Positions 12,064 through 40,818 of a DNA stretch of 62,807 nt are shown here, piece after piece. The stretch is from an uncultured Candidatus Saccharibacteria bacterium (lineage in GTDB: Bacteria; Patescibacteriota; Minisyncoccia; Ryanbacterales; HO2-45-13). The stretch covers positions 1-62,807 of the forward strand of contig CAYHBS010000005.1 in NCBI GenBank assembly GCA_964354975.1. Direction: 5' to 3'. The notes beneath the pieces are model-generated. The model was not told the origin of the DNA, ran no database searches, and worked only from the letters and a program-made list of their open reading frames with translations. The position numbers were made by a program, and so were the translations under genes. The number at the start of each line of letters is the position of its first letter. Position 1 is the first letter of the stretch.

Positions 12064-12454
12064 GATAGAGGTAATAACTCAACATAAATGCAACCGAGAA
12101 TATCAAGAGCGTAATCATATAGAGTACCGCGCTCGACACCCCACGCGTGATTATGGTGGGTGCAAGTGCCCCGCGTAGTAGCACAAGCACCATCCCTGTT
12201 TTGACCGCCAGGTAGGTGCCAATACCGGTGAGCTCAAGAAGGAGTATTGCGATGGGCTGCTCAAATAGGAGTCGACGTTTCAACATTTCGATCGCAACGT
12301 ACGCACTTGCGAGAGATCCAATAGTGATCCCCACTGGCAGTGATGATAACGATTCATACATCAGTCCTGCAATGAGCAACATCACTACACCCACACTGCG
12401 AGGTGCTTGTGCCATCAGTATCACTGCACCAACGATGAGCAGTTCTGGAATCAT
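12023..12454 (-). CDS. mreD: rod shape-determining protein MreD (by position and topology)
   Basis: 143-aa polytopic membrane protein directly after mreC, with a 4-nt overlap. Confidence 0.6.
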   Translation of the reverse strand: MIPELLIVGAVILMAQAPRSVGVVMLLIAGLMYESLSSLPVGITIGSLASAYVAIEMLKRRLLFEQPIAILLLELTGIGTYLAVKTGMVLVLLRGALAPTIITRGVSSAVLYMITLLIFSVAFMLSYYLYHALVSKTQKARLR

Positions 12455-13215
12455 TCGGAACGCATAACAAATAATCGTTGAATTGTTTGCACGTTTGTCG
12501 GGGATTCAATACGCACGTCAGCAAACGAACTTGTGGGTTGCAGGTCCACTGCAGTAATAACGCCGTAGACCAACTTTTCCGACGCATTATTGACAACGAC
12601 CATTCCCTCTTTTGGAAGAACGTCACTTGGGATACGTGCACTGTATATACCAAGACCAAGCCCTTGAATCTGGAGTGGCACATTCACGTCAAGCAGTAGT
12701 CCCTCGATAATATGCCCCGGAGTGGAATATATTTTTACGGAACTCCGATGCTCGGTCACCACGGTCACTTCTCCAACGAGTCCAGATGAAGTGCGGATAC
12801 GATTTCCAGTACGAACGCCGTCGGAAGCGCCCCGGTCAATGATAATCGTATTTTCAAATCCATCGAGCGTCCGCATCAGTACCCGCGCAGGCATATCTCC
12901 CTCATTCACACCGCCTTCCACAAATGCTGTGTTGAGGGCTTCGAGCTCGGTGACACGCGCTTGAGACGTGAGTAAGTTTTCCTGCAATTGTCCCACCTGA
13001 TTTGTAAGCCCCTGAATGGCCGTGCGTGATCCAAATCCGAGCTGGTCCCACCCATTACGAATAAACCGCAACGATTCTTCAACACTCAAAATAGGTGGAA
13101 GCGCAATGTGCATGAGCGCAATGCGCACTGGTTGAAAAAAACCAACGACACTCAATGTTACATAGGACGCAATACACGTCGCGATGATGATACCAATGAA
13201 GCTGCGGCGACGCAT
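12451..13215 (-). CDS. mreC: rod shape-determining protein MreC
   Basis: N-terminal TM, a coiled coil (QVGQLQENLLTSQARVTELEALN), then a beta-rich domain (SSGLVGEVTVVTEHRSSVKI). Confidence 0.8.
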   Translation of the reverse strand: MRRRSFIGIIIATCIASYVTLSVVGFFQPVRIALMHIALPPILSVEESLRFIRNGWDQLGFGSRTAIQGLTNQVGQLQENLLTSQARVTELEALNTAFVEGGVNEGDMPARVLMRTLDGFENTIIIDRGASDGVRTGNRIRTSSGLVGEVTVVTEHRSSVKIYSTPGHIIEGLLLDVNVPLQIQGLGLGIYSARIPSDVLPKEGMVVVNNASEKLVYGVITAVDLQPTSSFADVRIESPTNVQTIQRLFVMRSE

Positions 13216-13218
13216 GAT

Positions 13219-14271
13219 TTAGGTAAACGACGCTTCTTCGTCAGGCTCGATGAGTACCTCACGGAGCGCGTCAAGATCTTCAAGAATAATACCCGTGCCA
13301 CGCACTACCGCCGTAAGGGGGTCGTCAGCAATGTGTACGGGAATGTGCGTTTCTTTTTCAAGTAAGATATCCAGACCACGGAGGAGTGACCCTCCCCCGA
13401 CAAGTACAATTCCGCGATGAATAATATCTGCAACAAGTTCTGGTGGCGTCATCTCAACAGTTTCTTTTACTGCTTTCACAAGAATCTGCACCGATCCCTT
13501 GAGCGCCTCTCTCATGTCAGAGTCTGTCACAATAACTTCGCGAGGAAGCCCCGAGACGAGATCGCGTCCGCGCATGGCGGCCTCTAACTCTTCAGACAGT
13601 GGAACGGCGGATCCCAGTGCAATCTTGAGGTCTTCTGCGGTGCGCTCTCCGATAAGCATTTTAAATTCTTCGCGTGCGTAATCAATAATGTCTTTGTTGA
13701 GTCGGTCTCCAGCAATGCGAAGATTTTTTGCTGCGACAATACCCCCGAGTGAAATAACCGCAATATCTGTCGTGCCTCCTCCAATATCCACAATCATGTT
13801 TCCTACCGGATCTTGGATATTCATACGCACACCAATCGCCGCAGCCATGGGTTCTTCTACTAAAAATACTTCACGCGCACCGGCAGACGTTGCGGCGTCT
13901 TTCACGGCGCGTCGTTCTACTTCGGTAATTCCCGAAGGAACGCCAATCACCACGCGAGGACGCGCAATGCGACGCACCTGCGAACCGTATACACGTTCAA
14001 TGAAGTAACGGATCATTTCTTGCGTTACTTCGAAATCAGAAATAACACCGTCCACGAGTGGGCGATGTGCAGTAATGTGCGCGGGAGTACGCCCCACCAT
14101 ACGCTTTGCGGCACTACCCACAGCGAGCACTTTTCCTGTTTTTTGATTGACCGCGACAACAGAGGGCTCGTTGATGATAACACCCTTTCCCTTCACATAG
14201 ACAAGTGTGTAGGCGGTACCCAGGTCAATGCCAATATCGTTCGCAAATCGTTGTAGGAGTCGTCCGAACAT
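13219..14271 (-). CDS. mreB: rod shape-determining actin homolog MreB
   Basis: DIGIDLGTAYTLVYV, EPMAAAIG, VDIGGGTTDIAVISLGG, VLVGGGSLLRGLD. Confidence 0.95.
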   Translation of the reverse strand: MFGRLLQRFANDIGIDLGTAYTLVYVKGKGVIINEPSVVAVNQKTGKVLAVGSAAKRMVGRTPAHITAHRPLVDGVISDFEVTQEMIRYFIERVYGSQVRRIARPRVVIGVPSGITEVERRAVKDAATSAGAREVFLVEEPMAAAIGVRMNIQDPVGNMIVDIGGGTTDIAVISLGGIVAAKNLRIAGDRLNKDIIDYAREEFKMLIGERTAEDLKIALGSAVPLSEELEAAMRGRDLVSGLPREVIVTDSDMREALKGSVQILVKAVKETVEMTPPELVADIIHRGIVLVGGGSLLRGLDILLEKETHIPVHIADDPLTAVVRGTGIILEDLDALREVLIEPDEEASFT

Positions 14272-18028: not shown

Positions 18029-19039
18029 TTATCTCTTCATCATCACACTTGCTTTGTATGTGTCCAAATGCTCCAGCGCGGTACCCGTGCCTTTTGCAAC
18101 ACAAAAGAGCGCATCGTTTGCAACGCGTGCCGGTACTCCCGTGGAGCGATGCACCAGTTCATCAATGTTGCGAAGGAGCGACCCGCCACCGGTCATCACA
18201 ATTCCATCTGACATGATATCTGCGGCAAGTTCGGGGGGGGCGTCTTGAAGCGTCATTTTTATGGAACGGAGCATTCCTTCGAGACTCCCCCGAATTGCCT
18301 CCACTACTTGGTTGGTGGAAATTTCAGTGGTGCGGGGTAGACCGGTAAGAAAATCGCGGCCCTTGATGGTACAAGTGAGCTCGTGTTCCACTGGAACGGC
18401 TGAACCAATTGATATTTTTATTTCCTCTGCAGTGCGTTCCCCAATCGCTAGGTTGAGTTTTTCCTTAATATAGTCTGCGATTGCCTGATCAATTTTATTT
18501 CCCGCGATTTTAACAGAGTTTGCGCTGACGATTCCTCCAAGCGCAATGATAGCGGAATCGGTGGTACCCCCTCCAATATCGACAACCATGTTGCCATGTG
18601 CTTCATAAATTGGGAGTCCCGCGCCGATAGCGGCAAGAATTGGTTCTTTAATGACATACGCATTGCGAGCCCCTGCCCGAAGCGCCGCCTCAATCACGGC
18701 GCGCCGCTCGGTAGATGTGACGCCGGCGGGAACAGAAATCATCACGTCAGGGCGCAAGAATCGCATGCGACCGAGCGCCTTTTGAATAAAATAGCGGAGC
18801 ATTGCTTCGGTGACCCGATAATCCGCAATAACGCCATCGCGGAGTGGCCGGTGCGCAATGATCGTTTCCGGCGTGCGTCCGATCATAACTTTCGCTTCTT
18901 CTCCAACTGCGAGTACTTTTTTTGTTTCTGTTGAGATTGCAACAACCGAAGGTTCATTCAAAATAACCCCTTTGTGCGGCACAAATACAAGTGTATTTGC
19001 GGTACCGAGATCGATGCCAAGTTTCCGAATGATTGCCAT
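18029..19039 (-). CDS. mreB: second MreB/Mbl-family actin homolog
   Basis: From ATG 19039: MAIIRKLGIDLGTANTLVFV.., VVDIGGGTTDSAIIALGG, VMTGGGSLLRNID. The tracked 18-aa extension was trimmed. Confidence 0.9.
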   Translation of the reverse strand: MAIIRKLGIDLGTANTLVFVPHKGVILNEPSVVAISTETKKVLAVGEEAKVMIGRTPETIIAHRPLRDGVIADYRVTEAMLRYFIQKALGRMRFLRPDVMISVPAGVTSTERRAVIEAALRAGARNAYVIKEPILAAIGAGLPIYEAHGNMVVDIGGGTTDSAIIALGGIVSANSVKIAGNKIDQAIADYIKEKLNLAIGERTAEEIKISIGSAVPVEHELTCTIKGRDFLTGLPRTTEISTNQVVEAIRGSLEGMLRSIKMTLQDAPPELAADIMSDGIVMTGGGSLLRNIDELVHRSTGVPARVANDALFCVAKGTGTALEHLDTYKASVMMKR

Positions 19040-19108
19040 ACTATTGAGGACAACTATACCACAGAAGTTCCCGCACGAGTAGATTCTTCGCACTCACCCC
19101 TTTGGGTG

Positions 19109-27070: not shown

Positions 27071-27463
27071 TCACTTCGATGTCGCCGCAACGTGTTCAAG
27101 CACCTGGGACACAATTTCTTGAAGTGAATTATGCGCCTTTACCAAGTATGCTTTCGCCCCAAGACTAAGCGCTTTTTCCCTATCGGTGTCTTGGTCTAAA
27201 TTGGAAAGCACAATGACCGGAATATCAGTAATCGTTTTATCAAGTTTCTTTTCGATCAAAAATTCAAAGCCGTTTTTTTGCGGCATCATCAAATCAAGCA
27301 CCACGAGATCAATCTTACTACTTTTAATCGCTCCAAGCGCCTGTTCTCCATTATGCACGTGGATCACCTCAAGTCCGTCGCGAGTCAGTTCGTTGACAAG
27401 TGTTTTTGCGAGAAATCGGTCGTCCTCTGCGAGAAGTATTTTCTTTCCCTGCGGTTCAGTCAT
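27071..27463 (-). CDS. stand-alone response regulator receiver domain (CheY-like)
   Basis: KKILLAEDD.., phospho-acceptor context DLVVLDLMMP, VIVLSN, KALSLGAKAYLVK. No output domain. TACGAT-N7-ATG lies upstream. Confidence 0.88.
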   Translation of the reverse strand: MTEPQGKKILLAEDDRFLAKTLVNELTRDGLEVIHVHNGEQALGAIKSSKIDLVVLDLMMPQKNGFEFLIEKKLDKTITDIPVIVLSNLDQDTDREKALSLGAKAYLVKAHNSLQEIVSQVLEHVAATSK

Positions 27464-27536: not shown

Positions 27537-28055
27537 TTATCGTTGCACTGAGATTGTGGAAGGACTCTCCGCATCACAAGATCCAATAACAATTGAGCCG
27601 TTAGTATTTTTACGCATGTAATAACCGGTCAGCGCGCTGGACCAACTTCCACTGCCATTTGGATTCACGGGAAGCGTCGAAAGATACCCTTCCGTAGCGA
27701 GACCCGAGAGATTTACGCAATCATTTGCACCGGCGACAGTTTGATCAACAACGCTACAGCTCGTGTTACACGCGACTGTTGTAGATGCGTTTGATATTTG
27801 ATAAGCATTTCCGGCAACGGTTGCAGCAGCGGTAGCATCAAAATTGACACCATAAATATACGGACCCCGATTATCCACTTGGTCAATCTTAATTGAAGAG
27901 AGTACTGCCGTGACATCTGACCAACGCTTTGCGTCTCTGGCGTCGCGGAAACGTGAGAGTGGATCGAGCGCGACAAACGCCACTCCTGCGAGGATAGCGA
28001 TAATTCCGATGACAATGAGTAATTCGAGCAACGTAAAACCTTTTTGCTTTTGCAT
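27537..28055 (-). CDS. type IV pilin (probable major subunit)
   Basis: Class III signal MQKQKG/FTLLELLIVIGIIAILAGVAFVAL with E at +5. 172 aa with four Cys in the globular head. Has its own terminator. Confidence 0.85.
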   Translation of the reverse strand: MQKQKGFTLLELLIVIGIIAILAGVAFVALDPLSRFRDARDAKRWSDVTAVLSSIKIDQVDNRGPYIYGVNFDATAAATVAGNAYQISNASTTVACNTSCSVVDQTVAGANDCVNLSGLATEGYLSTLPVNPNGSGSWSSALTGYYMRKNTNGSIVIGSCDAESPSTISVQR

Positions 28056-28080: not shown

Positions 28081-29664
28081 TTAATTGGACAAGCGCTCCG
28101 CATACTGACGCGCGATCCAACCTTCTTGTTGACCTATACGAATATGATACCAGTCGCCCTTCTCCTCCAGTAGTGGATAACTCTCCCCTGGATTTACCCT
28201 TGTGACTTGGGCATATGTGGTCCCTGGCCCACTGCGGACGTTGAGCCACCCCGTTGGTGTTTGAAGAATTTTTACCATTTCGGATGCTGACGGTGTTGTA
28301 GGCAAAGCGGATCCGGTTGTAGTGCCGACCTGATTTTCATTTTCCTCCCCTGCCGGCATGAGCGTGATATATTCCACATTCGGTACAAACACATCTGTAT
28401 CGCCAGCGCGAAAACGTTCAACCGTGTCCTTAAACGAAAGTGCGGTCAGTGCCCCAAGGCCTACAATGCAGAACAGCCCAAAAATGAGGAGTCGAAACTG
28501 ATTGAATGCGCGTGGGAATATACTCATCATGTGCACTGATTTTTTTGCGCCTTGTGCAACTCCACTCAACGATACCGTTTGACGTTTTGAAGGGGCCCCT
28601 TCGTATTCAGCCGAGAAACAGGGATCTCCCTCCCAACCGCGATCAAGCGCTCGTCGTGCAAGCCCCACCGCAGCAACACCAATGTTCTTGGCAAAAACAG
28701 GATATTCATCCTCGTGGTGCGCGCCTTCAACTGCAAGTACCGGTACACCAATTGATACAGGAACATCGCTTGTGACCTGCATATATTCTTTGAGCCCAGG
28801 CAATTGACTGGTTCCTCCCACAAGAACCACCGATGCAACTCTTCGCTGGTATTTTTCATAAAAATCATCGAGTGCACCTCGGATTTCTTTTCCAACGGGC
28901 TCCAGTGCTTTCACCGCGGCGATAAAGATGGGAGATCCGGATTCTTTTACTCCTTCTTTTTTCTTACGATCCTCCGCTTCATTGACGCTCATACCAAGTG
29001 ACACCGCGATACTGGTGGTGATATCCTCGCCAGCAGTGCTGACTTGCCGCGATGTGCGAAGTCCCGCACCGTCAAAAATGGAAATGTCGGTTCGTCGCGC
29101 TCCAATATCTACCACGGCAATCACTTCCGTTTTACGATGCATCATCAGCCCTCGATACAGCGCGAGCGCTTCCACATCGAAACAGCGCAGTGGGATATCG
29201 AGTTCGGCAAAAAAAGCTCTCCATGGGGCAATTGCAGAGCGACTCATCGCAATGAGCAGTACATCAGCATTCACACCGGAAGTAATCAATTTTTGCGTGA
29301 CGTATAATGCATCTTCGGTCGCAAGGGGTACATTTTCCGCAAGAGCGCGCGCGACGTGCCCAGTAAAATCTTTTTCGTCTACGGGTGCGTGGAGCGTATG
29401 TACATAAATGAGTGAATCGGGAATGGCGAAGACAACATTTTTTGGTTTAATGGGACGGGGCAATGCATTGCGCATTGCTTCCTCAATAATAGTTTTTAAC
29501 TCTTCGGGAGATACAAGTACGCCTTGTTCCACGACGCCTTTCGGCAGCGTGCGCTTTACTGCTCCGTCAACAAAGAACCTCCCTTTTTGGACGCTGATCT
29601 GCACGATTTCTAAAATGTGATCGGTGACATGGATGCCAACCGCTGACCGTTTTCCTAGTAGCAT
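28081..29664 (-). CDS. pilM: PilM-like actin-fold pilus assembly protein fused to a TM segment and C-terminal SH3b domain
   Basis: PilM/FtsA-like ATPase fold (VVDIGARRTDISIF, VLVGGTSQLPGL). TM at aa 391-411 (RLLIFGLFCIVGLGALTALSF). SH3b-like C-terminus (GWLNVRSGPGTTYAQVTRVNPGESYPLLEEKGDWYHIRI..EGWIA). Confidence 0.78.
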   Translation of the reverse strand: MLLGKRSAVGIHVTDHILEIVQISVQKGRFFVDGAVKRTLPKGVVEQGVLVSPEELKTIIEEAMRNALPRPIKPKNVVFAIPDSLIYVHTLHAPVDEKDFTGHVARALAENVPLATEDALYVTQKLITSGVNADVLLIAMSRSAIAPWRAFFAELDIPLRCFDVEALALYRGLMMHRKTEVIAVVDIGARRTDISIFDGAGLRTSRQVSTAGEDITTSIAVSLGMSVNEAEDRKKKEGVKESGSPIFIAAVKALEPVGKEIRGALDDFYEKYQRRVASVVLVGGTSQLPGLKEYMQVTSDVPVSIGVPVLAVEGAHHEDEYPVFAKNIGVAAVGLARRALDRGWEGDPCFSAEYEGAPSKRQTVSLSGVAQGAKKSVHMMSIFPRAFNQFRLLIFGLFCIVGLGALTALSFKDTVERFRAGDTDVFVPNVEYITLMPAGEENENQVGTTTGSALPTTPSASEMVKILQTPTGWLNVRSGPGTTYAQVTRVNPGESYPLLEEKGDWYHIRIGQQEGWIARQYAERLSN

Positions 29665-29666
29665 GA

Positions 29667-30080
29667 TTATGGAACGGGCACGAATGATGTGTGCTCGACA
29701 TTCACTGTTGCGGGAACGCTTCCACTCACAAGTACAGACGCCCGTAGTGCGGTAGCGTATCCGTCTGTTGTTTGCGCAACCACAAACACATCAGAGGGCG
29801 TTCCTCCCGCCACCGTTATTATACACGATCCATTTGCCATCAATAACGAGCCTCCCGCGTCTGCCGGTGCACGGACAAACGTGCGTAGTTGTTCTTCCAC
29901 ACACCCCTCTGCAAGTGCGCGCGCGTGCAGTGTTCCTATTGATCCTAAGTGTCTCGTAAGCTGACCGATGCCTGATTGTGATGCGGACATAGCCATGAGT
30001 AGAAGTACTCCACCAAGTATCACAACCACGAGCAATGCCCCTACACCCTGCTCATAGATGTGCTCGTGTATTTGACGCAT
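29667..30080 (-). CDS. PilX-like / pilus-associated membrane-anchored protein
   Basis: From ATG 30080: MRQIHEHIYEQGVGALLVVVILGGVLLLMAM... Single N-terminal hydrophobic helix without E+5. Embedded among the pilin genes. Confidence 0.45.
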   Translation of the reverse strand: MRQIHEHIYEQGVGALLVVVILGGVLLLMAMSASQSGIGQLTRHLGSIGTLHARALAEGCVEEQLRTFVRAPADAGGSLLMANGSCIITVAGGTPSDVFVVAQTTDGYATALRASVLVSGSVPATVNVEHTSFVPVP

Positions 30081-30081
30081 A

Positions 30082-30564
30082 TTAGTTGGCGGTGACAAAC
30101 GAAGTAGTAATAGGAATTTCGAGCGCGTTCCCCCCTTCGCGATCGGTACGACCGACCAGATACACACCCACATGATCTCTCCGGCCAATAGTATTTCTAT
30201 GCACAAATGACAGCGTCGTAATGGTCACGCTCGGATCTGAAATTGTGGTGGATGCAAACCCATTCACACCTCTCACTATCGTGGCTCCCGAGAGACCAAA
30301 GGAAGTGATTTCAAACGTCTCTGCATTGATCAACGCGAGATAAGAATCAGACGCACCTGCGCTTGGAAACTGCACGATGTTAGACACTGCGAATGAATCC
30401 GCAAGTTGTTCCATTACCATGTGTAATGATTCTTCGAGATTGGCGCTTCCACTAGTGCGTCCTGTTGAACCGGCGATGCTTATCGTAAGTGATCCAAATG
30501 CAACCGCAATCAGACCTAAGACTGCGACGTAGATGATGAGTTCAATGAGTGTATATCCCTTCAT
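30082..30564 (-). CDS. minor pilin / pseudopilin
   Basis: From ATG 30564: MKG/YTLIELIIYVAVLGLIAVAF (prepilin cleavage/methylation motif, E+5). The tracked 76-aa extension overlaps the upstream gene and was trimmed. Confidence 0.7.
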   Translation of the reverse strand: MKGYTLIELIIYVAVLGLIAVAFGSLTISIAGSTGRTSGSANLEESLHMVMEQLADSFAVSNIVQFPSAGASDSYLALINAETFEITSFGLSGATIVRGVNGFASTTISDPSVTITTLSFVHRNTIGRRDHVGVYLVGRTDREGGNALEIPITTSFVTAN

Positions 30565-30565
30565 G

Positions 30566-33472
30566 CTATTGATAGTTGATGCGCACTTCTTGAAGTATTG
30601 GCGTTGCTGACCCATCACCGGTGAGCTCTGCACGGTATTGTACCCATTGATTTCCATTGAGTGCTGTGGGTACCATCGCTCCTGTCGGCAAATTGAAATA
30701 CGTTCCCGCTCCGGTGACACCGTACCACGCCCCCCACAACCCTGGCATTCCCCCGTTATCGGGCGCAGTATGTACTTGAAATTTAATATCACACATTGCG
30801 GGACATGTGCTTACATCTTCATCCCACTCAATAATTTCAACTGCTGACGCATCAGTCATGTCGAATGCTGAAGAAATCAGTTCACCATACACCGCATATG
30901 CTCCGCTACTAATGACCTCGCGATATGTTATTGTGATTTCATCAATCTGTATTTGCTGGGCCCCATTGCTTGAAAGAAACGCGCGAAACGCAATTTGACC
31001 CGATGATGGATCTACGGTTTGGATATTCGCATTCACGACGCCTGCGGTGTTGAAATGTATTGGCGCAGTTACAGTGGTCCACGCACCGCCATTCCAGTAC
31101 TGCCATGTTGCCCCTCCATCATCGGAAAGTTGGTAGTATACCGATCCTCCGTTCACAATTTCCATTGCGTTAAATGATGTCCATGCGTCTACATTACCAA
31201 CGTTCAAGCTCATCACCGGCGCAATCGTTGGATTCGTGGTGGGATACCCAGATCCTCCCGGACTCGACCAATCGAGCTGGGCGTTGTCGAACCGCGCGAC
31301 GGATTGTCCGTTTACTGCTCCTCCGCCCCCTTTCGTTTGGATGTGCGCGGCAAGCTTCACGTAGTAGGTGCCGGGTACGGTAACCTTGGGCGCAATATTG
31401 ATTGCGGGCGCACTTGCCCACCCTGACACGGCGGTGCGGTTACCACTCGACCACACTTCGGTGTCAATGGTGGGAGCGCCGGGTGCGGCGTCCACAAACG
31501 CGTACAGCTGAAATGAAGTCATGTATGTGGTGTCAATTTGACTCACCGCCCAATCAAAATTAAGCGAAGCGGTCGGATTGCTTACGGTGGTCGTAAATGA
31601 TTGTTCCCAATATCCCGAGAGTATTGAAGATTTGCGCTCGGCAATGGTGACACTCACGTTGCCTGTGGGGTTTCCTCCGGTGGCAGTATATGCGCCGTTC
31701 ACATACGTTGCAGTGTCATTCCAATCCGCATATGTCCATGGCGGAGCGGCGGTTGCAAAATCTGCGTTCGTGGTACCACCTGATGCGGGAGGAATGGTGA
31801 CTGACACCAACTCTGCGTATCCTCCGTTCACTTGGATGTCGGCAGGGTCGAAGAGGTAATCAGATGCGTTGGTGAAGGGCCACTGGTACGCGCGACGGCA
31901 TTCAATACGCACCGCATTGAGCCGCACTAATTGGGATCCATCACTGGAGAAAAAAGCTCTAAACATAATATTGGATGCAGTAACGGGAAATGATGTAATA
32001 TTTGCATTCACCACACTTGCGGTATTGAAACTCGTCAGTGTAACCGCAGTGACCCACGAAAGACTGTTCCAATATTTCCATGTTGCCCCTCCATCATCAG
32101 ACAGTTGGTAATATATTTCTCCACCATTTTTTACTGCGTCTTCTTGAAATGCACCCCATTCAGACATTGATGTGGGACTGTATGCACTCACCGGCGCAAT
32201 CGTTGGATTCGTGGTGGGATACCCAGATCCTCCCGGACTCGACCAATCGAGCTGGGCGTTGTCGAACCGCGCGACGGATTGTCCGTTTACTGCTCCTCCG
32301 CCCCCTTTCGTTTGGATGTGCGCGGCAAGCTTCACGTAGTAGGTGCCGGGTACGGTAACCTTGGGCGCAATATTGATTGCGGGCGCACTTGCCCACCCTG
32401 ACACGGCGGTGCGGTTACCACTCGACCACACTTCGGTGTCAATGGTGGGAGCGCCGGGTGCGGCGTCCACAAACGCGTACAGCTGAAATGAAGTCATGTA
32501 TGTGGTGTCAATTTGACTCACCGCCCAATCAAAATTAAGCGAAGCGGTCGGATTGCTTACGGTGGTCGTAAATGATTGTTCCCAATATCCCGAGAGTATT
32601 GAAGATTTGCGCTCGGCAATGGTGACACTCACGTTGCCTGTGGGGTTTCCTCCGGTGGCAGTATATGCGCCGTTCACATACGTTGCAGTGTCATTCCAAT
32701 CCGCATATGTCCATGGCGGAGCGGCGGTTGCAAAATCTGCGTTCGTGGTACCACCTGATGCGGGAGGAATGGTGACTGACACCAACTCTGCGTATCCTCC
32801 GTTCACTTGGATGTCGGCAGGGTCGAAGAGGTAATCAGATGCGTTGGTGAAGGGCCATTCGTAGAGCCCACAGGTCATTCCACCTGATGCGAGCTTCACA
32901 CTGCCCACAGTACCGATATCAATATTTCCGTCATCACTTTCGTATTTTGTTGAATCACTCCAAATTGTCTGCCCACTTCCACCAATCCAATTTGTTTGCG
33001 TCCAAAATGATGAGGCCCAGTTCGTGAGTAAGGTAGTTGCGCTCACGATGCGTTCACTTGCGCCCACTCCCCATGTTACTTCCGCGGTCACTGATTTTGA
33101 GTGCGGATCGGTGTACGCGCCTGGGCACGCAATAATATTGTGTGCACCATCTCGACACACATCAGCGAAAAGGACACGCCGTGAAAATGCGCCAAGTACT
33201 TCTGTAGTGCTTTCTCCAAGAAAGTTCCATGTGTCTCCCGCGAGTGTAAATCCGGAATTTATGAGAGTGAATTCATTCCACGCACGATCTTGAATGGTGC
33301 GCACCGCGGTCATTGCCTCTGTGACGTATCCTTCTGCCTCAACGAGTGGTGCGGCGATCACACTCACATCAAGTCCGGTGGCCGCAAGCGAGGCGACCGC
33401 ACTCGCAATCACGCCAAATATGGCGACTGCGAGCACTATTTCAAGAAGCCCCACTCCTTCATTACTCTTCAT
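30566..33472 (-). CDS. giant prepilin-like protein (968 aa) with duplicated 325-aa module
   Basis: N-terminus MKSNEG/VGLLEIVLAVAIFGVIASAV (E+5). Two tandem modules each end in an Asp-box SDDGGATW. 223 aa of the two modules are identical. Confidence 0.75.
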   Translation of the reverse strand: MKSNEGVGLLEIVLAVAIFGVIASAVASLAATGLDVSVIAAPLVEAEGYVTEAMTAVRTIQDRAWNEFTLINSGFTLAGDTWNFLGESTTEVLGAFSRRVLFADVCRDGAHNIIACPGAYTDPHSKSVTAEVTWGVGASERIVSATTLLTNWASSFWTQTNWIGGSGQTIWSDSTKYESDDGNIDIGTVGSVKLASGGMTCGLYEWPFTNASDYLFDPADIQVNGGYAELVSVTIPPASGGTTNADFATAAPPWTYADWNDTATYVNGAYTATGGNPTGNVSVTIAERKSSILSGYWEQSFTTTVSNPTASLNFDWAVSQIDTTYMTSFQLYAFVDAAPGAPTIDTEVWSSGNRTAVSGWASAPAINIAPKVTVPGTYYVKLAAHIQTKGGGGAVNGQSVARFDNAQLDWSSPGGSGYPTTNPTIAPVSAYSPTSMSEWGAFQEDAVKNGGEIYYQLSDDGGATWKYWNSLSWVTAVTLTSFNTASVVNANITSFPVTASNIMFRAFFSSDGSQLVRLNAVRIECRRAYQWPFTNASDYLFDPADIQVNGGYAELVSVTIPPASGGTTNADFATAAPPWTYADWNDTATYVNGAYTATGGNPTGNVSVTIAERKSSILSGYWEQSFTTTVSNPTASLNFDWAVSQIDTTYMTSFQLYAFVDAAPGAPTIDTEVWSSGNRTAVSGWASAPAINIAPKVTVPGTYYVKLAAHIQTKGGGGAVNGQSVARFDNAQLDWSSPGGSGYPTTNPTIAPVMSLNVGNVDAWTSFNAMEIVNGGSVYYQLSDDGGATWQYWNGGAWTTVTAPIHFNTAGVVNANIQTVDPSSGQIAFRAFLSSNGAQQIQIDEITITYREVISSGAYAVYGELISSAFDMTDASAVEIIEWDEDVSTCPAMCDIKFQVHTAPDNGGMPGLWGAWYGVTGAGTYFNLPTGAMVPTALNGNQWVQYRAELTGDGSATPILQEVRINYQ
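31213..31882. repeat. 670-bp intragenic repeat, copy B
   Basis: Appears base-for-base identical to 32188-32857 (offset 975 bp), by my own line-by-line comparison. Identical antisense track ORFs at 31578-31859 and 32553-32834 agree. Confidence 0.9.
32188..32857. repeat. 670-bp intragenic repeat, copy A
   Basis: See 31213-31882. The 305 bp between the copies (31883-32187) is only loosely similar to the segment after copy B. Confidence 0.9.
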
Positions 33473-33938
33473 ATATCAATCCCGCTTCCGTGAGCGTTAG
33501 CGTGTGTGTGTCGCCTCCCGTAGTAATAAAAATCTTTCTTGCGGTGGTGGTGCCGACGGATCCCGAAAAATGCACATCGGGAATCGATGGCTCCAGCGAC
33601 ACCACCGCGTCCGTCTCCAATGGAATCATGTAATCTGCCTCACTACTCCGCACACCATAACTCTCTCCTTGGTACATTGTGAGCATAACGGGCGCGCTGA
33701 TGATATTAACAAAAAGTCCGTGCGTGGTGTATTGAAAATTTCCACGTGAACGTGAGCGCGCCTCGCGGAGAGCGTCGGCAATGGTACGTTCCGCACTTGC
33801 GAGTTGTGCTGACGTATAAGACCGAGAAAGAAGCGGAAGTAATACCGCGCCGAGCATCATGAGCACCCCAAGCACAAAAATTGTTTCAAGCACACTGATA
33901 CCTGCGGACTTTCTCTGCAACTGCCGCGCCCGATGCAT
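33462..33938 (-). CDS. minor pilin / pseudopilin (GspH/FimT-like size)
   Basis: From ATG 33938: MHRARQLQRKSAG/ISVLETIFVLGVLMMLGAVLL (E+5). The tracked extension overlaps pilC and was trimmed. Confidence 0.65.
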   Translation of the reverse strand: MHRARQLQRKSAGISVLETIFVLGVLMMLGAVLLPLLSRSYTSAQLASAERTIADALREARSRSRGNFQYTTHGLFVNIISAPVMLTMYQGESYGVRSSEADYMIPLETDAVVSLEPSIPDVHFSGSVGTTTARKIFITTGGDTHTLTLTEAGLIYEE

Positions 33939-33939
33939 A

Positions 33940-34995
33940 TCACCGACGCAAACTTCCGGTAATTTCGTAGATCGGAGAAATGATCGAAAGCGCAAGAAAC
34001 ACCACCACTCCTCCCATGACAAGCAGTAGGAGCGGCTCTACCAAACTTGCAAGGGACTTCGTCGCGGTATCGACGTCAGATTCATAAAATTCCGCCAAGT
34101 AGGTGAGTGTACTTTCATATGCTCCCGCATTTTCTCCCACCCGAATCATATTTGTGACAAGTGGCGGAAAGAGTGATGCGTGGTCGGCGAGCGCGGCGGA
34201 AAGTGTCTCTCCCCCACGTGCGCGCTCCCTGGCGCTCCTGATGGCGCGCTGGTAATACACATTCGTGGCGTTTGTTTCTGTCACCGCAAGCGCCTCATCA
34301 AGTGTGAGCCCGCTTTTGAGGAGCATGGCGGACGTACGAGAAAATCGCGCAATATGTGAAGAGACAACGACGCGTCGAACGACGGGAATCCAGAGCGCGA
34401 GCGCGCCCGTCACTGGCCTCATAAATTTTCTCGTTACCAGTATACTCACCGCAATGAGTCCCACCGCGAGTCCAGTGGCAATGACGGCGCCATGCGCATC
34501 AACAATGTCGGTAAGCCATAGGAGTGCCCGTGTGCTTGCCGGGAGCGTCACACGAAGTCCGCGAAATATCGGGGTAATCTTGGGTAATATAAAAATCGCA
34601 ATAAGCACAGCAAGTCCAGATGCGGCGATCAGGATAATGAGTGGATAGAGCATCGCGCCCATCACTTTTGCCTTGAGTTCACGCTCTTTTTCTAAGCTCA
34701 CCGCGAGATGTTCCAAGTTCTCGACTAACGTGCCCGAAGACTCTCCTGCGCGAACCGCCGACACAATATGCGGAGAAAATACGCGAGGATGTTCCGCGAG
34801 CGCCTGCTCGAGCGTGCGCCCCGACTCCACGGCGCGCGCCACGTGCGCGAGCACGCGCTTGAGTCCTCCACGCGCGGAACCTCCCGCAACATGTATCGCT
34901 TCTGTCACGGACATGCCCGATTTCAACATGACCGCAAGATGACGCGCAAGAATTGCGAGATCGGCGAGCGGTGCTTTTTGTTCAAATATGTTCAT
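33940..34995 (-). CDS. pilC: type IV pilus platform protein (GspF/PilC family)
   Basis: Two T2SS-F repeats (LAVMLKSGMSVTEAI.. and SAMLLKSGLTLDEAL..) and three TM regions. Confidence 0.9.
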   Translation of the reverse strand: MNIFEQKAPLADLAILARHLAVMLKSGMSVTEAIHVAGGSARGGLKRVLAHVARAVESGRTLEQALAEHPRVFSPHIVSAVRAGESSGTLVENLEHLAVSLEKERELKAKVMGAMLYPLIILIAASGLAVLIAIFILPKITPIFRGLRVTLPASTRALLWLTDIVDAHGAVIATGLAVGLIAVSILVTRKFMRPVTGALALWIPVVRRVVVSSHIARFSRTSAMLLKSGLTLDEALAVTETNATNVYYQRAIRSARERARGGETLSAALADHASLFPPLVTNMIRVGENAGAYESTLTYLAEFYESDVDTATKSLASLVEPLLLLVMGGVVVFLALSIISPIYEITGSLRR

Positions 34996-34998
34996 ATG

Positions 34999-36687
34999 CT
35001 ATTCCCGAATGACGCGCAATACTTCATCAAGCGTGGTAAGACCAGACATGACTTTTTCGACTCCATCATCGAGCATGGTGCGCATGCCGCCCGAGCGCGC
35101 AAGACGCGCAAGTTCTCCGGCAGATACGCGTTTCATAATTCCCTCTTTAATCGGCTCCGTCAGCTCCATCATTTCGAAAATACCGATACGTCCATTATAC
35201 CCCGACTTGTGGCAAACCGCGCAGCCCTTTCCGCGAAATACCGTGAGCCCCTTCAGTGTGTCTTTCCCAAGTAAATGGAATGACTCGGTGAGCCGAGGAT
35301 CATCAATAATACTCGCCTCCTCTGCGTCAGTGAGTTCATGCGACTCTCTGCAATGCTCGCAAATTTTGCGCACTAAACGTTGTGCAATCACCATGCGCAC
35401 CGTGGACGCAACCAAAAATGGTTCAACTCCCATCTCTAAAAATCGCGGCAGTGTGGTTGCGGCATCATTTGCGTGCACCGTGGAAAGTACCAGGTGTCCC
35501 GTCATGGCAGAATTCACTGCAATACGTGCGGTATCTTCATCTCGAATTTCTCCCACAAGAATGATGTCTGGATCTTGGCGTACAATGGCACGAAGTCCTT
35601 CCGCAAACGTCAGATTCGTTTTTGAATTCACCTGGATTTGTGATATCCCCTCTACATCGTACTCAACCGGATCTTCGATACTCGCGATATGCACGTCCGG
35701 CTTATTGAGAATTTTAAGCATCGCATACACCGTGGTCGTCTTTCCACTTCCGGTGGGTCCCGTGACAAGGAGCATTCCGTGCGGATGCATCATTCCATTT
35801 TGTAATTGTTCCATGTGTGCTTCGGAAAATCCGAGGTCGCGCACACTGAACCTACGACTACGCGATGACAGGAGTCGCATCACTACATTTTCTCCGTGTG
35901 TCACTGGTACGATGGAAACACGCACATCAATGTTTTCTCCGGCGACGGGAAACTGGAATTTTCCGTCCTGTGACGCGCGGTGCTCATCAGTGCGCATGCG
36001 AGAGAGCACTTTAATGCGCGTCACAACAGGATCCATAAATTCCTTCGGCATTTGGAGTACCGCGTGCATCACGCCATCAACGCGAAATCGCACAACAATT
36101 CGATCCTCCATGGGCTCCACATGCACGTCGGACGCGCGGTTACGATATCCGTGTTCCACGAGCACATTCACGAGTGCCACCGTCGCCTTGTCGCGATCCT
36201 CCGGCGAAAGATCTGTGCTGTCAAATTGAGTCTTCAAATGTGCGTATGCGGCATCAATTCCTTCTTCAAATTGCGTCAGTGCGTCCACAAACGCTCGACG
36301 CGTCATTGCAAATATTTGTACCTTTTGTCCCAGTTTTTTTTCGACAAGACGAACAGTATCCTTATCCGAAGGATCAATCATTCCCACCTTCAGTCCATGA
36401 GCGTCCAGCGCAAATCCGAGTATCCCTTTTGCGCGACTCATGACTTCAGGAATAGATTCATACGCTCTGCGGTCCACCGCTTGCTGATGTAAATTAACAA
36501 ACGGCACTTCGTAAAAGTTGGCAACCAGTTGCCCAAGTTGTTCATCAGAAATGAGATCGCGATCAACGAGAATTTCATCAAGTGCTCTCCCCGTTGCTTT
36601 CGCGTCCCCCGTGGCTGCAGAAAAATCGTCCAAGCTCACAAAGCCGGGATCAACCAAAATCAAGCGATATTGCTGTGGTGTTAACAT
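34999..36687 (-). CDS. pilB: type IV pilus assembly ATPase (GspE/PilB family)
   Basis: N-terminal GSPII_E_N-like domain, Walker A GPTGSGKTTT, Asp/His boxes, tetracysteine CEHC..CAVC. Confidence 0.93.
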   Translation of the reverse strand: MLTPQQYRLILVDPGFVSLDDFSAATGDAKATGRALDEILVDRDLISDEQLGQLVANFYEVPFVNLHQQAVDRRAYESIPEVMSRAKGILGFALDAHGLKVGMIDPSDKDTVRLVEKKLGQKVQIFAMTRRAFVDALTQFEEGIDAAYAHLKTQFDSTDLSPEDRDKATVALVNVLVEHGYRNRASDVHVEPMEDRIVVRFRVDGVMHAVLQMPKEFMDPVVTRIKVLSRMRTDEHRASQDGKFQFPVAGENIDVRVSIVPVTHGENVVMRLLSSRSRRFSVRDLGFSEAHMEQLQNGMMHPHGMLLVTGPTGSGKTTTVYAMLKILNKPDVHIASIEDPVEYDVEGISQIQVNSKTNLTFAEGLRAIVRQDPDIILVGEIRDEDTARIAVNSAMTGHLVLSTVHANDAATTLPRFLEMGVEPFLVASTVRMVIAQRLVRKICEHCRESHELTDAEEASIIDDPRLTESFHLLGKDTLKGLTVFRGKGCAVCHKSGYNGRIGIFEMMELTEPIKEGIMKRVSAGELARLARSGGMRTMLDDGVEKVMSGLTTLDEVLRVIRE

Positions 36688-38737: not shown

Positions 38738-40279
38738 TTAGAGACCGAGCGTTACAAACGAAGATTCTGAACTCGTGGCGCTATTACCGCTCCCATCCTT
38801 CGATACTACAAGGAAGTAGTATGTCGTGCTCGCAGTAAGACCAGTAAGGCCGAGCGCGTGCGAGGTTATGAGACTTGCATTCGTCGATGTCAGTGCACCT
38901 GTGCCAACAGCAACAGGAGTCGTAGTTCCATACCACACGGTACTGTCCGCATTCTCATCGGTTGTCCAGAGAATGGTAGATGCCGCCGCAGTGGTGCTTG
39001 ATGCAGTAACTCCACTGATTACCGGAGCTACAGTGTCGGTCGTCGTCACTGACTGCTCCGAGCTGGTCGCGGTGTTCCCCGACCCATCCTTCGACACAAT
39101 CAGGAAGTAGTAGGTTGTTCCCGGCATGAGTCCGGAAAGATTGATTGTGTGAGAAGTACCGGTGCTCCCCTCATTTGCACTGTCCGCAGTTGCGAGTGCT
39201 ACGGGACTTGTGGTTCCGTAGAGAATTTTTCCATCAGCACTCTCATTGGTATTCCAACTGACTGATGCGCCGGTGTTCGTAATATTGCTCTTTTGAATAT
39301 TCGAGATCACTGGAGCGGTAGTGTCAGATGAAGATGACGTAGTAAACGACTGTTGAGAACTAGTTGCAGTATTTCCAGACGCGTCACGCGACACTACGAG
39401 GTAGTAGTATGTGGTGCCTTGTGTAAGTCCGGAGAGATTAATCGAGTGCGACGTGGACCTTCCGCTCTGGGTTGCGGTTGAAGTCGTCGATGCAATTGCT
39501 ACGGGGTTTAACGTTGAGTACCACACCTTTCCAGTTGCAGACTCGTTCGTCATCCATGTAATTTTTGCAGCTACTCCAGTAACATTTGTTGCCGTGAGAT
39601 TCGTAATGACCGGGGCGGTAGTGTCTGGAGTGGTAGTGGCGTTATCGTCATCATCATCGTCGTCATCGTCATCGTCGTCGTCTTTTTTGCACGAACCCGT
39701 CAGCCCGTATTTCTTTGCAATACCACACGGGAGCGTTGTGCTTCCGTTTTGGAAGAGGCCCGGAGGAAACATACCCGAATTCCCTGCGCCATTTGCAAAT
39801 CTTTCTCCGAATTTTTCAGCCATGTTTGCAAACTTCTGTGCCCAGTGCTCCTTAATTTTTTGGCGCGTCTTTGGACCCACTTCGCCGATTGCGTCGATAC
39901 CATATTTACGCTGGTAGCGTTGCACCGCACGCATCGTGAGAATTCCATAATACCCAGTGATCAACGCTTCAGGGTATACGTCGGGATCCGATGAGAGAAA
40001 CTCCTGAAGTTGCTTCACGTCGTCTCCCCTCGTGCCCATACTCAATTGGCGCGTGATACGGAGCTCCTGCTGTGTTTGCTGGAGATCTTGCGTTGTTGTC
40101 TTAACCTCGCCTTTGAGCACTGCGAGTTGGTCTTGTAATTGTTTGATCTTTTCCTGCAACTGTGAAATGAGCTGCTGGAGATCGGTCGCACTCGTGGTAC
40201 TTGTTTGGGCAAGCGCTGCCGCTGGTGTTGAGAGCAACATCGAAAACCCAAGAATACCCGCAATAATTGACTGTTTCAT
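38738..40279 (-). CDS. secreted protein: coiled coil + peptidoglycan-binding domain + poly-Asp linker + three FN3-like repeats
   Basis: From ATG 40279: signal peptide MKQSIIAGILGFSMLLSTPAAALA. PG_binding_1-like GDDVKQLQEFLSSDP..ITGYYGILTMRAVQRYQRKYGI. D13 run. Three repeats of about 97 aa (DTTAPVI.N...W.T.E.A...V.YG....GTTYY.LVVS.D.SGN). Confidence 0.8.
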   Translation of the reverse strand: MKQSIIAGILGFSMLLSTPAAALAQTSTTSATDLQQLISQLQEKIKQLQDQLAVLKGEVKTTTQDLQQTQQELRITRQLSMGTRGDDVKQLQEFLSSDPDVYPEALITGYYGILTMRAVQRYQRKYGIDAIGEVGPKTRQKIKEHWAQKFANMAEKFGERFANGAGNSGMFPPGLFQNGSTTLPCGIAKKYGLTGSCKKDDDDDDDDDDDDDNATTTPDTTAPVITNLTATNVTGVAAKITWMTNESATGKVWYSTLNPVAIASTTSTATQSGRSTSHSINLSGLTQGTTYYYLVVSRDASGNTATSSQQSFTTSSSSDTTAPVISNIQKSNITNTGASVSWNTNESADGKILYGTTSPVALATADSANEGSTGTSHTINLSGLMPGTTYYFLIVSKDGSGNTATSSEQSVTTTDTVAPVISGVTASSTTAAASTILWTTDENADSTVWYGTTTPVAVGTGALTSTNASLITSHALGLTGLTASTTYYFLVVSKDGSGNSATSSESSFVTLGL

Positions 40280-40443
40280 ATACACAAATTTAGCCGATAA
40301 TGGCGATTTCCCTAACCAATAATGACGACATGCTCCCAAAAGTATAACACAGAGTACATAAAAACACCCAAATATTTGACCAAACCGTCCATATGTGGTA
40401 GGTTCGGTATAAATTCGATCTCTCAATTCCGGGGTGAAAAAAA

Positions 40444-40818
40444 ATGGCCGAAGTAGTGAGCATAGTGTTCGTACTCTCAATAGCTATTGCGCTGAAGCTC
40501 ATGTCACAGCGAGGACAGGAAACAACAGTTTCGCTCTTTTGGAACGCGATTTGGGTTCCGGCACGCTTCTGTTGCGCAGTTGCAGTCACGTATATCCCAG
40601 CATTCGGAGTGGCGTACTGGACCTGGATCCATGTCCACTGGCTTCTCGCGCTCGTCCTTGTGTTGATCATTGGCCTCGCAACACTGCTCATGCTTACCTT
40701 GGCATATCTGACGATTGCAGAAACGGGCACAATTCTCCGCGAGGGCATACCCGAGGCACACCGTACCGCGCTTCAGTTCCAAAGTCAGATTCAAGATAAG
40801 GCGCCGTCATCTGGATGA
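40444..40818 (+). CDS. small polytopic membrane protein (124 aa)
   Basis: SD-like GGGGTGA lies 7-8 nt before ATG 40444. Three or four hydrophobic helices. A hairpin spans the stop. Confidence 0.5.
   Translation: MAEVVSIVFVLSIAIALKLMSQRGQETTVSLFWNAIWVPARFCCAVAVTYIPAFGVAYWTWIHVHWLLALVLVLIIGLATLLMLTLAYLTIAETGTILREGIPEAHRTALQFQSQIQDKAPSSG

Follow-up and report, generated by a model that had tools for sequence, protein, structure and literature searches.

A probable modular minor pilin with lectin-like modules and an exact internal DNA repeat in a type IV pilus operon of Patescibacteria

The stretch of DNA studied here (hereafter the window) spans 62,807 bp of contig CAYHBS010000005.1 from the genome of an uncultured, ultrasmall Patescibacteria member living in groundwater (assembly GCA_964354975.1) and has a GC content of 48.9%. 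At 30566-33472 on its minus strand it carries an ATG-started open reading frame (ORF) of 968 codons (stop codon 30566-30568). This ORF, to which we refer as the giant gene, lies within a tightly packed type IV pilus operon on the same strand that runs pilB-pilC-H-giant-J-K-pilM-major pilin, the letters H, J, and K denoting the positions of its pilin-like neighbors. An original prediction, made from the letters of the window, had described the product as an oversized prepilin-like protein with an internal duplication and a possible role in attachment, and had proposed structure prediction and a comparison of related loci as checks. Based on the analyses presented below, we regard the protein as probably a modular minor pilin of the type IV pilus of Patescibacteria, or Candidate Phyla Radiation (CPR), that shows lectin-like modules at the pilus tip and whose repeat identity results from intragenic gene conversion.

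The internal repeat was delimited by a base-by-base self-comparison of the DNA at an offset of 975 bp. Positions 31213-31882 and 32188-32857 are identical at 670 of 670 consecutive bases, forming a direct repeat with a period of 975 bp. Identity falls abruptly at both edges of this tract, and the 3' edge is sharp and situated inside homologous sequence. At the protein level, the two copies correspond to amino acids (aa) 206-428 and 531-753, hereafter modules A1 and A2, and each is followed by a stretch of about 100 aa, B1 (aa 429-530) and B2 (aa 754-855), which are 45% identical to one another. Both B stretches contain YYQLSDDGGATW(K/Q)YW, fitting the Asp-box pattern SxDxGxTW, with the box SDDGGATW located at S458-W465 in B1 and at S783-W790 in B2. 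The ORF, the repeat with its period, the strongly diverged part behind each copy, and the exact Asp-box in both copies had all been claimed in the original prediction and were borne out, the strand being the only element it had left unstated; its estimate of about six times the size of a normal pilin agrees with the ratio of 5.6 that we find relative to the 172-aa major pilin of the same operon. An exact repeat of this length cannot arise by chance. A foreign origin of the repeat was considered and rejected, as the GC content of the giant gene (0.49-0.56) is inside the range of the adjacent pilus genes. No A-, B-, or C-like sequence that might have served as donor of B1 was found elsewhere in the 62.8-kb window (module C is the C-terminal module described below). 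A self-BLASTP search of the giant protein for internal repeats yielded the full self-match only, and module hidden Markov models (HMMs) and the offset comparison were used instead.

Upstream of the giant gene, the operon comprises pilB (34999-36687), encoding a 562-aa type IV pilus extension ATPase with MshEN and T2SSE domains (Pfam T2SSE, 7e-128; NCBIfam PilB/GspE), pilC (33940-34995), encoding a 351-aa platform protein with two T2SSF domains (Pfam T2SSF, 3.8e-55), and the gene for the H-position minor pilin (33462-33938). The latter protein, of 158 aa, starts with MHRARQLQRKSAG/ISVLE (the slash marking the cleavage site), carries Glu+5, has weak matches to the NCBIfam models XpsH and ComGE, and is also called as a gene in the related contig L001. 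The ATG of the giant gene overlaps the stop codon of this 158-aa pilin gene by 11 nucleotides (nt). Downstream follow the J-position minor pilin (30082-30564; 160 aa, MKG/YTLIEL, with Glu+5), which matches TIGR02532 with 17.5 bits (cut-off 16.3), Pfam N_methyl, and weakly ComGF, and the K-position pilin-like protein (29667-30080; 137 aa), identified from its sequence, which starts with MRQIHEHIYEQG/VGALL (YEQG/VGALL around the site) and is devoid of Glu+5. These are followed by pilM (28081-29664; 527 aa), the product of which combines PilM with a transmembrane (TM) segment and a C-terminal SH3_3 domain (Pfam PilM_2, 7e-24; SH3_3, 4e-12), and by the gene for the 172-aa major pilin (27537-28055), which starts with MQKQKG/FTLLELLIVIGIIAILAG (MQKQKG/FTLLEL) and matches TIGR02532 with 32.2 bits. 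The fusion of pilM to a TM segment and SH3_3 is also present in contig L002 (536 aa) and not in L004 (441 aa).

In other Patescibacteria contigs (L001-L005 and L072), the neighbors of the giant gene's homologues are arranged in an identical order. H, I, and J orthologues carry Glu+5 wherever the N-terminus was called; the H orthologues display G/xxxxE in L002-L004, and the gene call in L005 begins after the signal. All K orthologues in L002-L005, on the other hand, lack Glu+5, with G/VGALL, G/VAALL, G/YIALI, and G/FMALL seen as N-termini. A pilin-like protein without Glu+5 that follows three Glu+5 genes is the signature of a K subunit, as in proteins of the GspK/PilX type. Here, this signature is found on the smallest rather than the largest pilin.

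A search of 5.8 billion proteins returned 69 relatives of the giant protein, the named ones all belonging to Patescibacteria/CPR, and some of them annotated as PulG, PilV, or 'prepilin-type'. The N-terminus of the giant protein, MKSNEG/VGLLEIVLAVAIFGVIASAVASLAA, displays the features of a class III signal (Gly-1, Glu+5), and in an alignment of 17 N-domains of the family E11 is invariant and G6 at least 90% conserved. The GFxxxE model TIGR02532 is matched by 12 of these 17 N-domains (best E value 9.5e-7), and several homologues carry PF07963. Among minor pilin and pseudopilin models, ComGE is matched by 16 of the 17 (best 2.7e-6), GspI by 13, XpsI by 12, and PilV by 11. AlphaFold2 (AF2) models residues 4-63 as a helix packed on an antiparallel sheet formed by residues 75-150. 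A profile search of the sequences in the PDB with the N alignment gave no significant match, the best value being 0.0056, to an unrelated stretch of LigA. The class III prepilin signal with Glu+5 that had been claimed is thus upheld by family conservation, the position in the operon, and the N-domain model matches, and we assign the giant protein with good, if not complete, confidence to the I position of an HIJK block. As to the claim that it is built into the pilus fiber, the signal and the operon speak for its pilin nature; it is, however, probably a minor (tip or priming) pilin and not a fiber-building subunit.

To define the remainder of the protein, module HMMs derived from the window protein were refined iteratively with the 69 relatives, and an AF2 model was generated on a 34-sequence alignment. 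The HMM bounds in the window protein are N 5-160, W 162-197, A 208-427, B 431-523, A 533-752, B 756-848, and C 862-967, in agreement with a common family layout that consists of N (about 160 aa), W (about 40 aa, after a flexible linker), one to three units of A (about 220 aa) and B (about 92 aa), and C (about 106 aa). The pilin module N (aa 1-160; 32993-33472), recognized from the AF2 models and family profile matches, includes the leader MKSNEG and the hydrophobic α1. The W region (aa 161-205; 32858-32992) is composed of a low-confidence linker, with a predicted local distance difference test score (pLDDT) below 50 at residues 163-169, and a conserved Trp-rich segment, NWxSxxWxQTxWxGGxGQ. A1 (aa 206-428; 32188-32857), the first copy of the 670-bp repeat, comprises a predicted β-hairpin, WPFTNASDYLFDPADIQVNGGYAEL, and a CBM-like jelly roll of about 190 aa (CBM, carbohydrate-binding module). 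B1 (aa 429-530; 31883-32187; Asp-box at nt 32078-32101) is a predicted Asp-box β-sandwich and forms the unique sequence between the A copies. The second repeat copy, A2 (aa 531-753; 31213-31882), is followed by the diverged Asp-box β-sandwich B2 (aa 754-855; 30908-31212; Asp-box at nt 31103-31126), of which the first 29 codons are strain-variable. The protein ends with C (aa 856-968; 30569-30907), a conserved β-sandwich that has no Asp-box and is distantly related to B (hhalign E value 7.8e-5, probability 61%). All these modules are encoded on the minus strand.

The AF2 model of the whole protein has a mean pLDDT of 85.5 and is all-β after residue 200, the last 800 residues being predicted as six β-sandwich domains (the linker, two A-B pairs, and C). 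Foldseek comparison of the whole model with the PDB identified reelin R5-6 (5b4x_C; E value 6.7e-8), and other top matches were the RPTPmu MAM-Ig ectodomain, SGBP-B, BcsB, CBM-like domains of phage tailspikes, and gingipain adhesin domains. Matches to CBMs included the CBM22 tandem 4xup, CBM61 (2xom; probability 1.0, target TM-score 0.56-0.60), CBM4 (3k4z), and CBM11; as the output of the whole-model search contained no query ranges, these would be placed on A by their aligned length of about 175-200. A search of BFVD retrieved only generic multi-sandwich phage tail or receptor-binding proteins with TM-scores of about 0.1. Accordingly, A is modeled as a CBM-like jelly roll and B as a single-Asp-box sandwich of the reelin-subrepeat type. 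The prediction of a carbohydrate-binding or adhesin module is therefore matched at the level of the modeled fold, by CBM-, reelin-, and adhesin-like neighbors in the PDB, while glycan binding and display on the pilus are putative.

In the Asp-box, S458, G462, and W465 are invariant among the 34 sequences, and conservation reaches 90% or more at D460 and T464. Weak Pfam matches of the family B sequences are to BNR (13 of 20), DUF5643 (6 of 20), and Reelin_subrepeat-B (3 of 20), and the sole Pfam or NCBIfam match of the whole giant protein is a sub-threshold one to BNR (19.3 bits vs a cut-off of 27). We considered whether B might be a blade of a sialidase-type BNR propeller and rejected this, given that there is one Asp-box per sandwich of about 92 aa, that the BNR score is below the cut-off, and that B is closer to reelin subrepeat B. 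None of the modules A, B, and C falls within a curated Pfam or NCBIfam family. Searching the PDB sequences with the A and B profiles likewise returned nothing significant, the best values being 0.37 for A and 0.057 for B, the latter to sialidase Asp-boxes.

The comparison of related loci yielded two contigs that are 99.6-99.9% identical to the window, L001 and L072, both from the 0.1-µm fraction of Hainich groundwater well H51. L072 (replicate R2) contains two units with the same exact 670-bp repeat and is 99.69% identical to the window over 16.5 kb. L001 (replicate R1) contains one unit and lacks exactly one 975-bp unit. A cluster of five single-nucleotide polymorphisms (SNPs) within A (aa 296-305; 32559-32585 and 31584-31610, 27 nt) differs between the window and L072 and is the same in both copies within each, which is the pattern expected under concerted evolution by gene conversion. 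L001, in turn, has an allele of its own, with 13 SNPs, immediately behind the repeat where B2 begins (aa 754-782; 31127-31212, 86 nt), suggesting that it represents a distinct haplotype. A diversity-generating retroelement was rejected as the source of the 13-SNP patch, as the changes are not adenine-specific, no template repeat was found, and no reverse transcriptase was found among the ORFs scanned. Elsewhere, too, the differences between assemblies are packed in short tracts, for instance 11 SNPs within 85 nt of pilB (35509-35593) and a tract at 13363-13468 of L072; such mosaics reflect either recombination between co-existing strains or the consensus of a strain mixture.

Similar repeats are present in other members of the family. 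Near-identical repeats of 909-1095 bp at 99.6-100% identity were detected in L002-L007, among them an exact repeat of 1095 bp in L007. In P0003 (L002), A1 and A2 are 100% and B1 and B2 96% identical, with 953 bp exact; the corresponding values are 100% and 96% in P0007 (L003; 1094 bp exact), 100% and 99% in P0023 (L004; 942 bp at 99.6%), and 98% and 96% in P0005, the same protein being recovered from two samples (L005/6). P0004, on a truncated contig with at least three units, reaches 100% for both modules. P0027, a close relative of P0023, has 78% identity between its A copies and 99% between its B copies, a mosaic opposite to that of the window gene. The repeat-bearing proteins are mostly 38-54% identical to each other, and up to about 62% for the A modules of P0003 and P0005. 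Near-identical duplication of A-B units is thus a recurrent feature, seen in seven or more members that are only distantly related. Within nearly all members with two units, each B copy resembles its partner more than it resembles the B of any other protein; B1 of the window, by contrast, is closer to the B of other species (50-58%) than to B2 (45%). Finally, a 90% cluster from Buchananbacteria includes a 648-aa version with one unit (five contigs), a 967-aa version with two, and truncated versions with at least three units. At the locus of the window, one- and two-unit versions occur at 99.6-99.9% flank identity, and all these sequences are from short-read assemblies. Together, these observations point to intragenic gene conversion and unequal recombination as the processes behind repeat identity and differences in unit number, and the claim that the module can change in copy number is supported by the one versus two units of L001 and L072 and the one, two, or at least three units of the Buchananbacteria cluster.

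A number of results weigh against the reading as a tip pilin with converted lectin-like cassettes. The window protein scores 14.4 bits on TIGR02532 (cut-off 16.3), has no match to Pfam N_methyl PF07963, and reaches an E value of 0.15 with ComGE, and the ComGE, GspI, XpsI, and PilV matches of the family N-domains are all far under the curated cut-offs. A Foldseek search of the isolated N-domain model against the PDB found no pilin (best E value 0.076), a result that we consider uninformative and not negative, given the simplicity of the fold and the truncation of most solved pilins. In addition, neither a prepilin peptidase (Peptidase_A24) nor PilT nor a secretin is encoded among the 50 ORFs scanned in the window. 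The CBM-like fold matches have 10-18% sequence identity and no Pfam or NCBIfam model, including any Pfam CBM, matches the A region, so that A was rejected as a member of a curated CBM family. The lack of a PilT gene in the window, the fact that the best family N-domain matches are to ComGE and GspI, and the occurrence of the A-B cassette in TM-anchored giant proteins that are not pilins would fit a product other than a surface pilus adhesin, namely a pseudopilin for DNA uptake resembling those of Com or type II secretion systems, or an uncleaved, membrane-anchored surface protein. The operon, however, includes PilM and a typical 172-aa major pilin with a strong GFxxxE match, six lectin-like sandwiches have no obvious role in DNA uptake, and in cultivated Saccharibacteria an operon of homologous kind produces genuine pili, in which a minor pilin with an accessory domain influences host binding (PMC11623550). 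We therefore hold this alternative to be quite improbable.

The repeat itself calls for similar caution, since a repeat node that is traversed twice in a de Bruijn graph is identical by construction, and the number of loops may be arbitrary. All related contigs are apparently short-read de Bruijn assemblies of low depth (coverage 5.7-7), and L001, with one unit, and L072, with two, stem from replicate filters of a single well, so that L001 may have been collapsed in assembly. In the Buchananbacteria cluster, moreover, the unit is wholly identical, and the loop counts of one, two, and at least three could be an assembler's choice. Collapse, bubble popping, or loop traversal could accordingly have produced the second module, its identity, or its copy number; the exact identity of A1 and A2 could have been enforced by the assembler, and the true copy number could be above two. 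Against an artefact, B1 provides 305 bp of unique sequence between the end of one A and the start of another (ECRRAYQ/WPFTNASDY), and its two junctions, from the end of A into B1 and from B1 into the start of A, require at least two A copies. Furthermore, the two-unit structure is found in two independent assemblies (the window and L072), as is that of P0005, L001 has its private 13-SNP allele and is hence not simply the same haplotype collapsed, and assemblers are far more prone to collapse repeats than to invent them. An assembly artefact is thus unlikely as an explanation overall; that the second module is wholly artefactual is very hard to credit, whereas a true A1/A2 identity slightly below 100% or a different true copy number is a possibility to be reckoned with, albeit not the expected outcome. 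A very recent tandem duplication of a single A-B unit after the strains had split would dispense with conversion altogether, and such an event is suggested by L002, L003, L007, and the Buchananbacteria cluster, where nearly the whole unit (953-1095 of 984-1146 bp) is identical. In the window, however, identity is confined to A, with B1 nearer to B modules of other species than to B2, an outcome that a fresh A-B duplication could not produce; P0027 shows the reverse mosaic; and the B copies of P0012 and P0016 are 86-88% identical across unrelated inserted modules, mosaics such as conversion tracts would leave. Such a duplication therefore has little probability, and the exact identity of A1 and A2 next to old, diverged B modules makes conversion the best explanation. 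Out of the recent duplication, gene conversion, or artefact offered by the original prediction, conversion is hence the one that is retained (A 100% vs B 45%).

Beyond the 69 relatives, 65 loci were obtained when GTDB species genomes were scanned, many of them bearing generic placeholder titles such as 'uncultured Gammaproteobacteria'; the specific names among them are Magasanik-, Uhr-, Falkow-, Buchanan-, Kerfeld-, and Woykebacteria, Microgenomates, and similar. A few weak matches to the B domain only carry non-CPR titles (Actinomycetota, Humimicrobiales, Bdellovibrionales). With a single A-B unit as query, an exhaustive HMMER search retrieved 716 clusters at 50% identity at E ≤ 1e-3, and 418 at E ≤ 1e-10. 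In other members, LamG, CBM_2, pentaxin, DUF4082, Cys-rich, or propeller-like inserts accompany or replace A-B units. A middle that varies in this way, flanked by a pilin anchor and a C that are both constant, argues that it is the middle that bears specificity. Cys-rich linkers between modules (C-x-G-T-P-x-x-C-x-x-F/Y-x-x-Q-x-x-C-x-x-Q-x-G-C-x-W) were observed in P0009, P0010, P0032, P0047, P0053, P0060, and P0067 and are absent from the window protein; they may be disulfide-stabilized spacers. The A-B cassette is also found in giant surface proteins that are TM-anchored and not pilins (P0061, P0063-66; L062 4831-6567), which have an N-terminal TM helix, arrays of Big_13/Big_6 or fn3 domains, and a C-terminal anchor, and share the conserved hairpin W-x-F-x5-Y-x-Y-D-x3-I-E-V-x-G-G-x-A-x-L. 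Accordingly, the cassette is a general surface module of CPR, and, as in modular pilins, the extra domain exists outside pilus proteins as well.

With regard to the other genes of the window, a receiver-only response regulator (27071-27463, minus strand; Pfam Response_reg in the gene table of L001) adjoins the pilus operon. Receiver genes also flank the operon in L002, L004, and L005, together with a HisKA kinase in L004, suggesting two-component control of piliation. Upstream of the operon, beyond ZIP-transporter and RRM genes, a 580-aa ORF with a TTG start (38738-40480; called with 513 aa in L001) encodes a peptidoglycan-binding domain and repeats resembling fn3 and the N-terminal domain of purple acid phosphatase, its product being another probable cell-surface protein. 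The remainder of the window is of a housekeeping nature (mraZ/mraW, Mur ligases, penicillin-binding proteins (PBPs), two MreB genes, tRNA synthetases, enolase, PPDK). The MreB paralogues, at 13219-14271 and 18029-19093, and MreC, at 12451-13215, occur in an organism with a small genome, and there are two PBP2-type transpeptidases (3891-5573 and 10315-12063). A 325-aa RhuM and Fic/DOC protein adjoins tRNA-Glu(CTC) at 1249-1324, the only tRNA gene of the window, and this region (1249-2433) may be a small integrated or defense-type islet.

Modular pilins are established and widespread, with lectin-type modules among them, and CPR examples have been reported from Magasanik-, Falkow-, and Wolfebacteria (Raynaud et al., PMC8179133). 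Like Streptococcus sanguinis PilB (vWA) and PilC (Ig-like and ConA-like lectin), the giant protein connects, through a short linker, a small class III pilin module with bulky modules at the C-terminus, the latter not being pilus-specific. The lectin pilin PilC occurs in a tip complex together with an I-like partner (PMC9934059), and the likeness would extend to a monoderm-type envelope, a minor-pilin complex located at the tip, and lectin-type modules predicted or shown to bind glycans. In contrast to PilB and PilC, the pilin module is here of the I type (GspI/PilV/ComGE-like) and part of a full H-I-J-K block, and the 800-aa appendage consists of A, B, and C modules without Pfam signature, tandemly duplicated with exact DNA identity. 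In the Saccharibacteria strain TM7x, PilX1 is lectin-like (a β-jelly-roll resembling L-type lectins) and PilX2 is a β-propeller, the latter being needed for efficient host binding (PMC11623550). These are CPR minor pilins with C-terminal carbohydrate-binding-like domains and proposed tip proteins as well, a likeness by description; the giant protein differs in its multiple tandem modules and conserved C domain and, judging from the names of related genomes (mainly Magasanik-, Uhr-, Falkow-, Buchanan-, and Kerfeldbacteria), belongs to another CPR lineage.

The H-I-J-K priming or tip complex is the framework of type 4 filaments (PMC9934059), and the locus resembles GspH-I-J-K, FimU-PilV-W-X, and ComGD-E-F-G in its four consecutive pilin-like genes, the last without Glu+5. 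The classical I subunit, however, is usually the smallest (about 100-130 aa) and K is bulky, whereas here I is giant and K has 137 aa, which is unusual. In Periscope proteins (SasG, Rib, Sgo_0707, CdrA), adjacent folded domains are likewise encoded by near-identical DNA repeats whose number differs between close strains, and intragenic recombination has been proposed to change it (PMC8201768). Periscope proteins are anchored to the cell wall or outer membrane and their repeats form a stalk under a distal binding domain, whereas the present protein has a pilin anchor and its unit is a 325-aa pair of lectin-like domains, present in one to at least three units according to short-read assemblies. 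One Asp-box hairpin per sandwich is also a feature of reelin repeats (subrepeat A, EGF, subrepeat B), the best Foldseek match; unlike in reelin, there is no EGF module, and the likeness to reelin and to CBM4/9/22/61, at about 10-18% identity, is at the fold level only. The 'Pam pilus' of CPR described in 2026 was considered as a relative and rejected, as it is an unrelated donor-strand-exchange pilus. In short, the kind of protein is already known from the modular lectin-type tip pilins of S. sanguinis and Saccharibacteria; new are the domain family A/B/C, for which there is no curated model, its attachment to an I-position pilin, and the recurrent near-identical duplication of the cassette with apparent differences in copy number.

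The favored reading, a tip-located modular minor pilin, can be put into the following working model. A prepilin peptidase, presumably encoded elsewhere in the genome, would cleave the protein after Gly6, and the pilin module would join H, J, and K in a priming complex. This complex would start polymerization of the 172-aa major pilin by PilB and PilC and end up at the pilus tip, where the bulky C-terminal string could ride along, as no secretin of an outer membrane would stand in its way. The A modules, resembling CBMs, and the B and C modules, of the Asp-box type and its relative, would then attach to a polymer, probably a glycan, on the surface of a substrate or of a host or partner cell. 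Conversion acting on two old repeat units would have given identical A1 and A2 beside diverged B modules, and the long identical tracts would allow unequal recombination by which whole 975-bp units are gained or lost, altering the adhesin's valency and how far it reaches.

Among candidates for the means by which Patescibacteria locate and hold on to hosts, minor pilins with accessory domains are the best in the few cultivated Saccharibacteria. The giant gene defines a widespread, unannotated family of putative tip pilins outside Saccharibacteria, given the 716 clusters that match the A-B unit, and its domain boundaries can be used for expression and glycan-array work. The family further suggests that attachment modules evolve by cassette duplication, loss, and conversion. 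These cassette dynamics, the exact identity, and the copy number still need proof at the level of reads. Should reads from a single groundwater population bear out the copy-number polymorphism, the locus would provide a simple marker of microdiversity in host interaction. It would also advise caution with gene catalogues based on metagenome-assembled genomes, in which such genes are easily collapsed. More speculatively, and with doubts outweighing our confidence, frequent conversion might keep the cassettes of the tip pilin identical while unequal recombination adds, removes, or swaps them, so that the attachment organelle of an obligate episymbiont would possess a switch for reach, valency, and perhaps host specificity. 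If so, the variable middle of A-B units, LamG domains, propellers, and Cys-rich linkers between a fixed anchor and a fixed C would be a determinant of host range.

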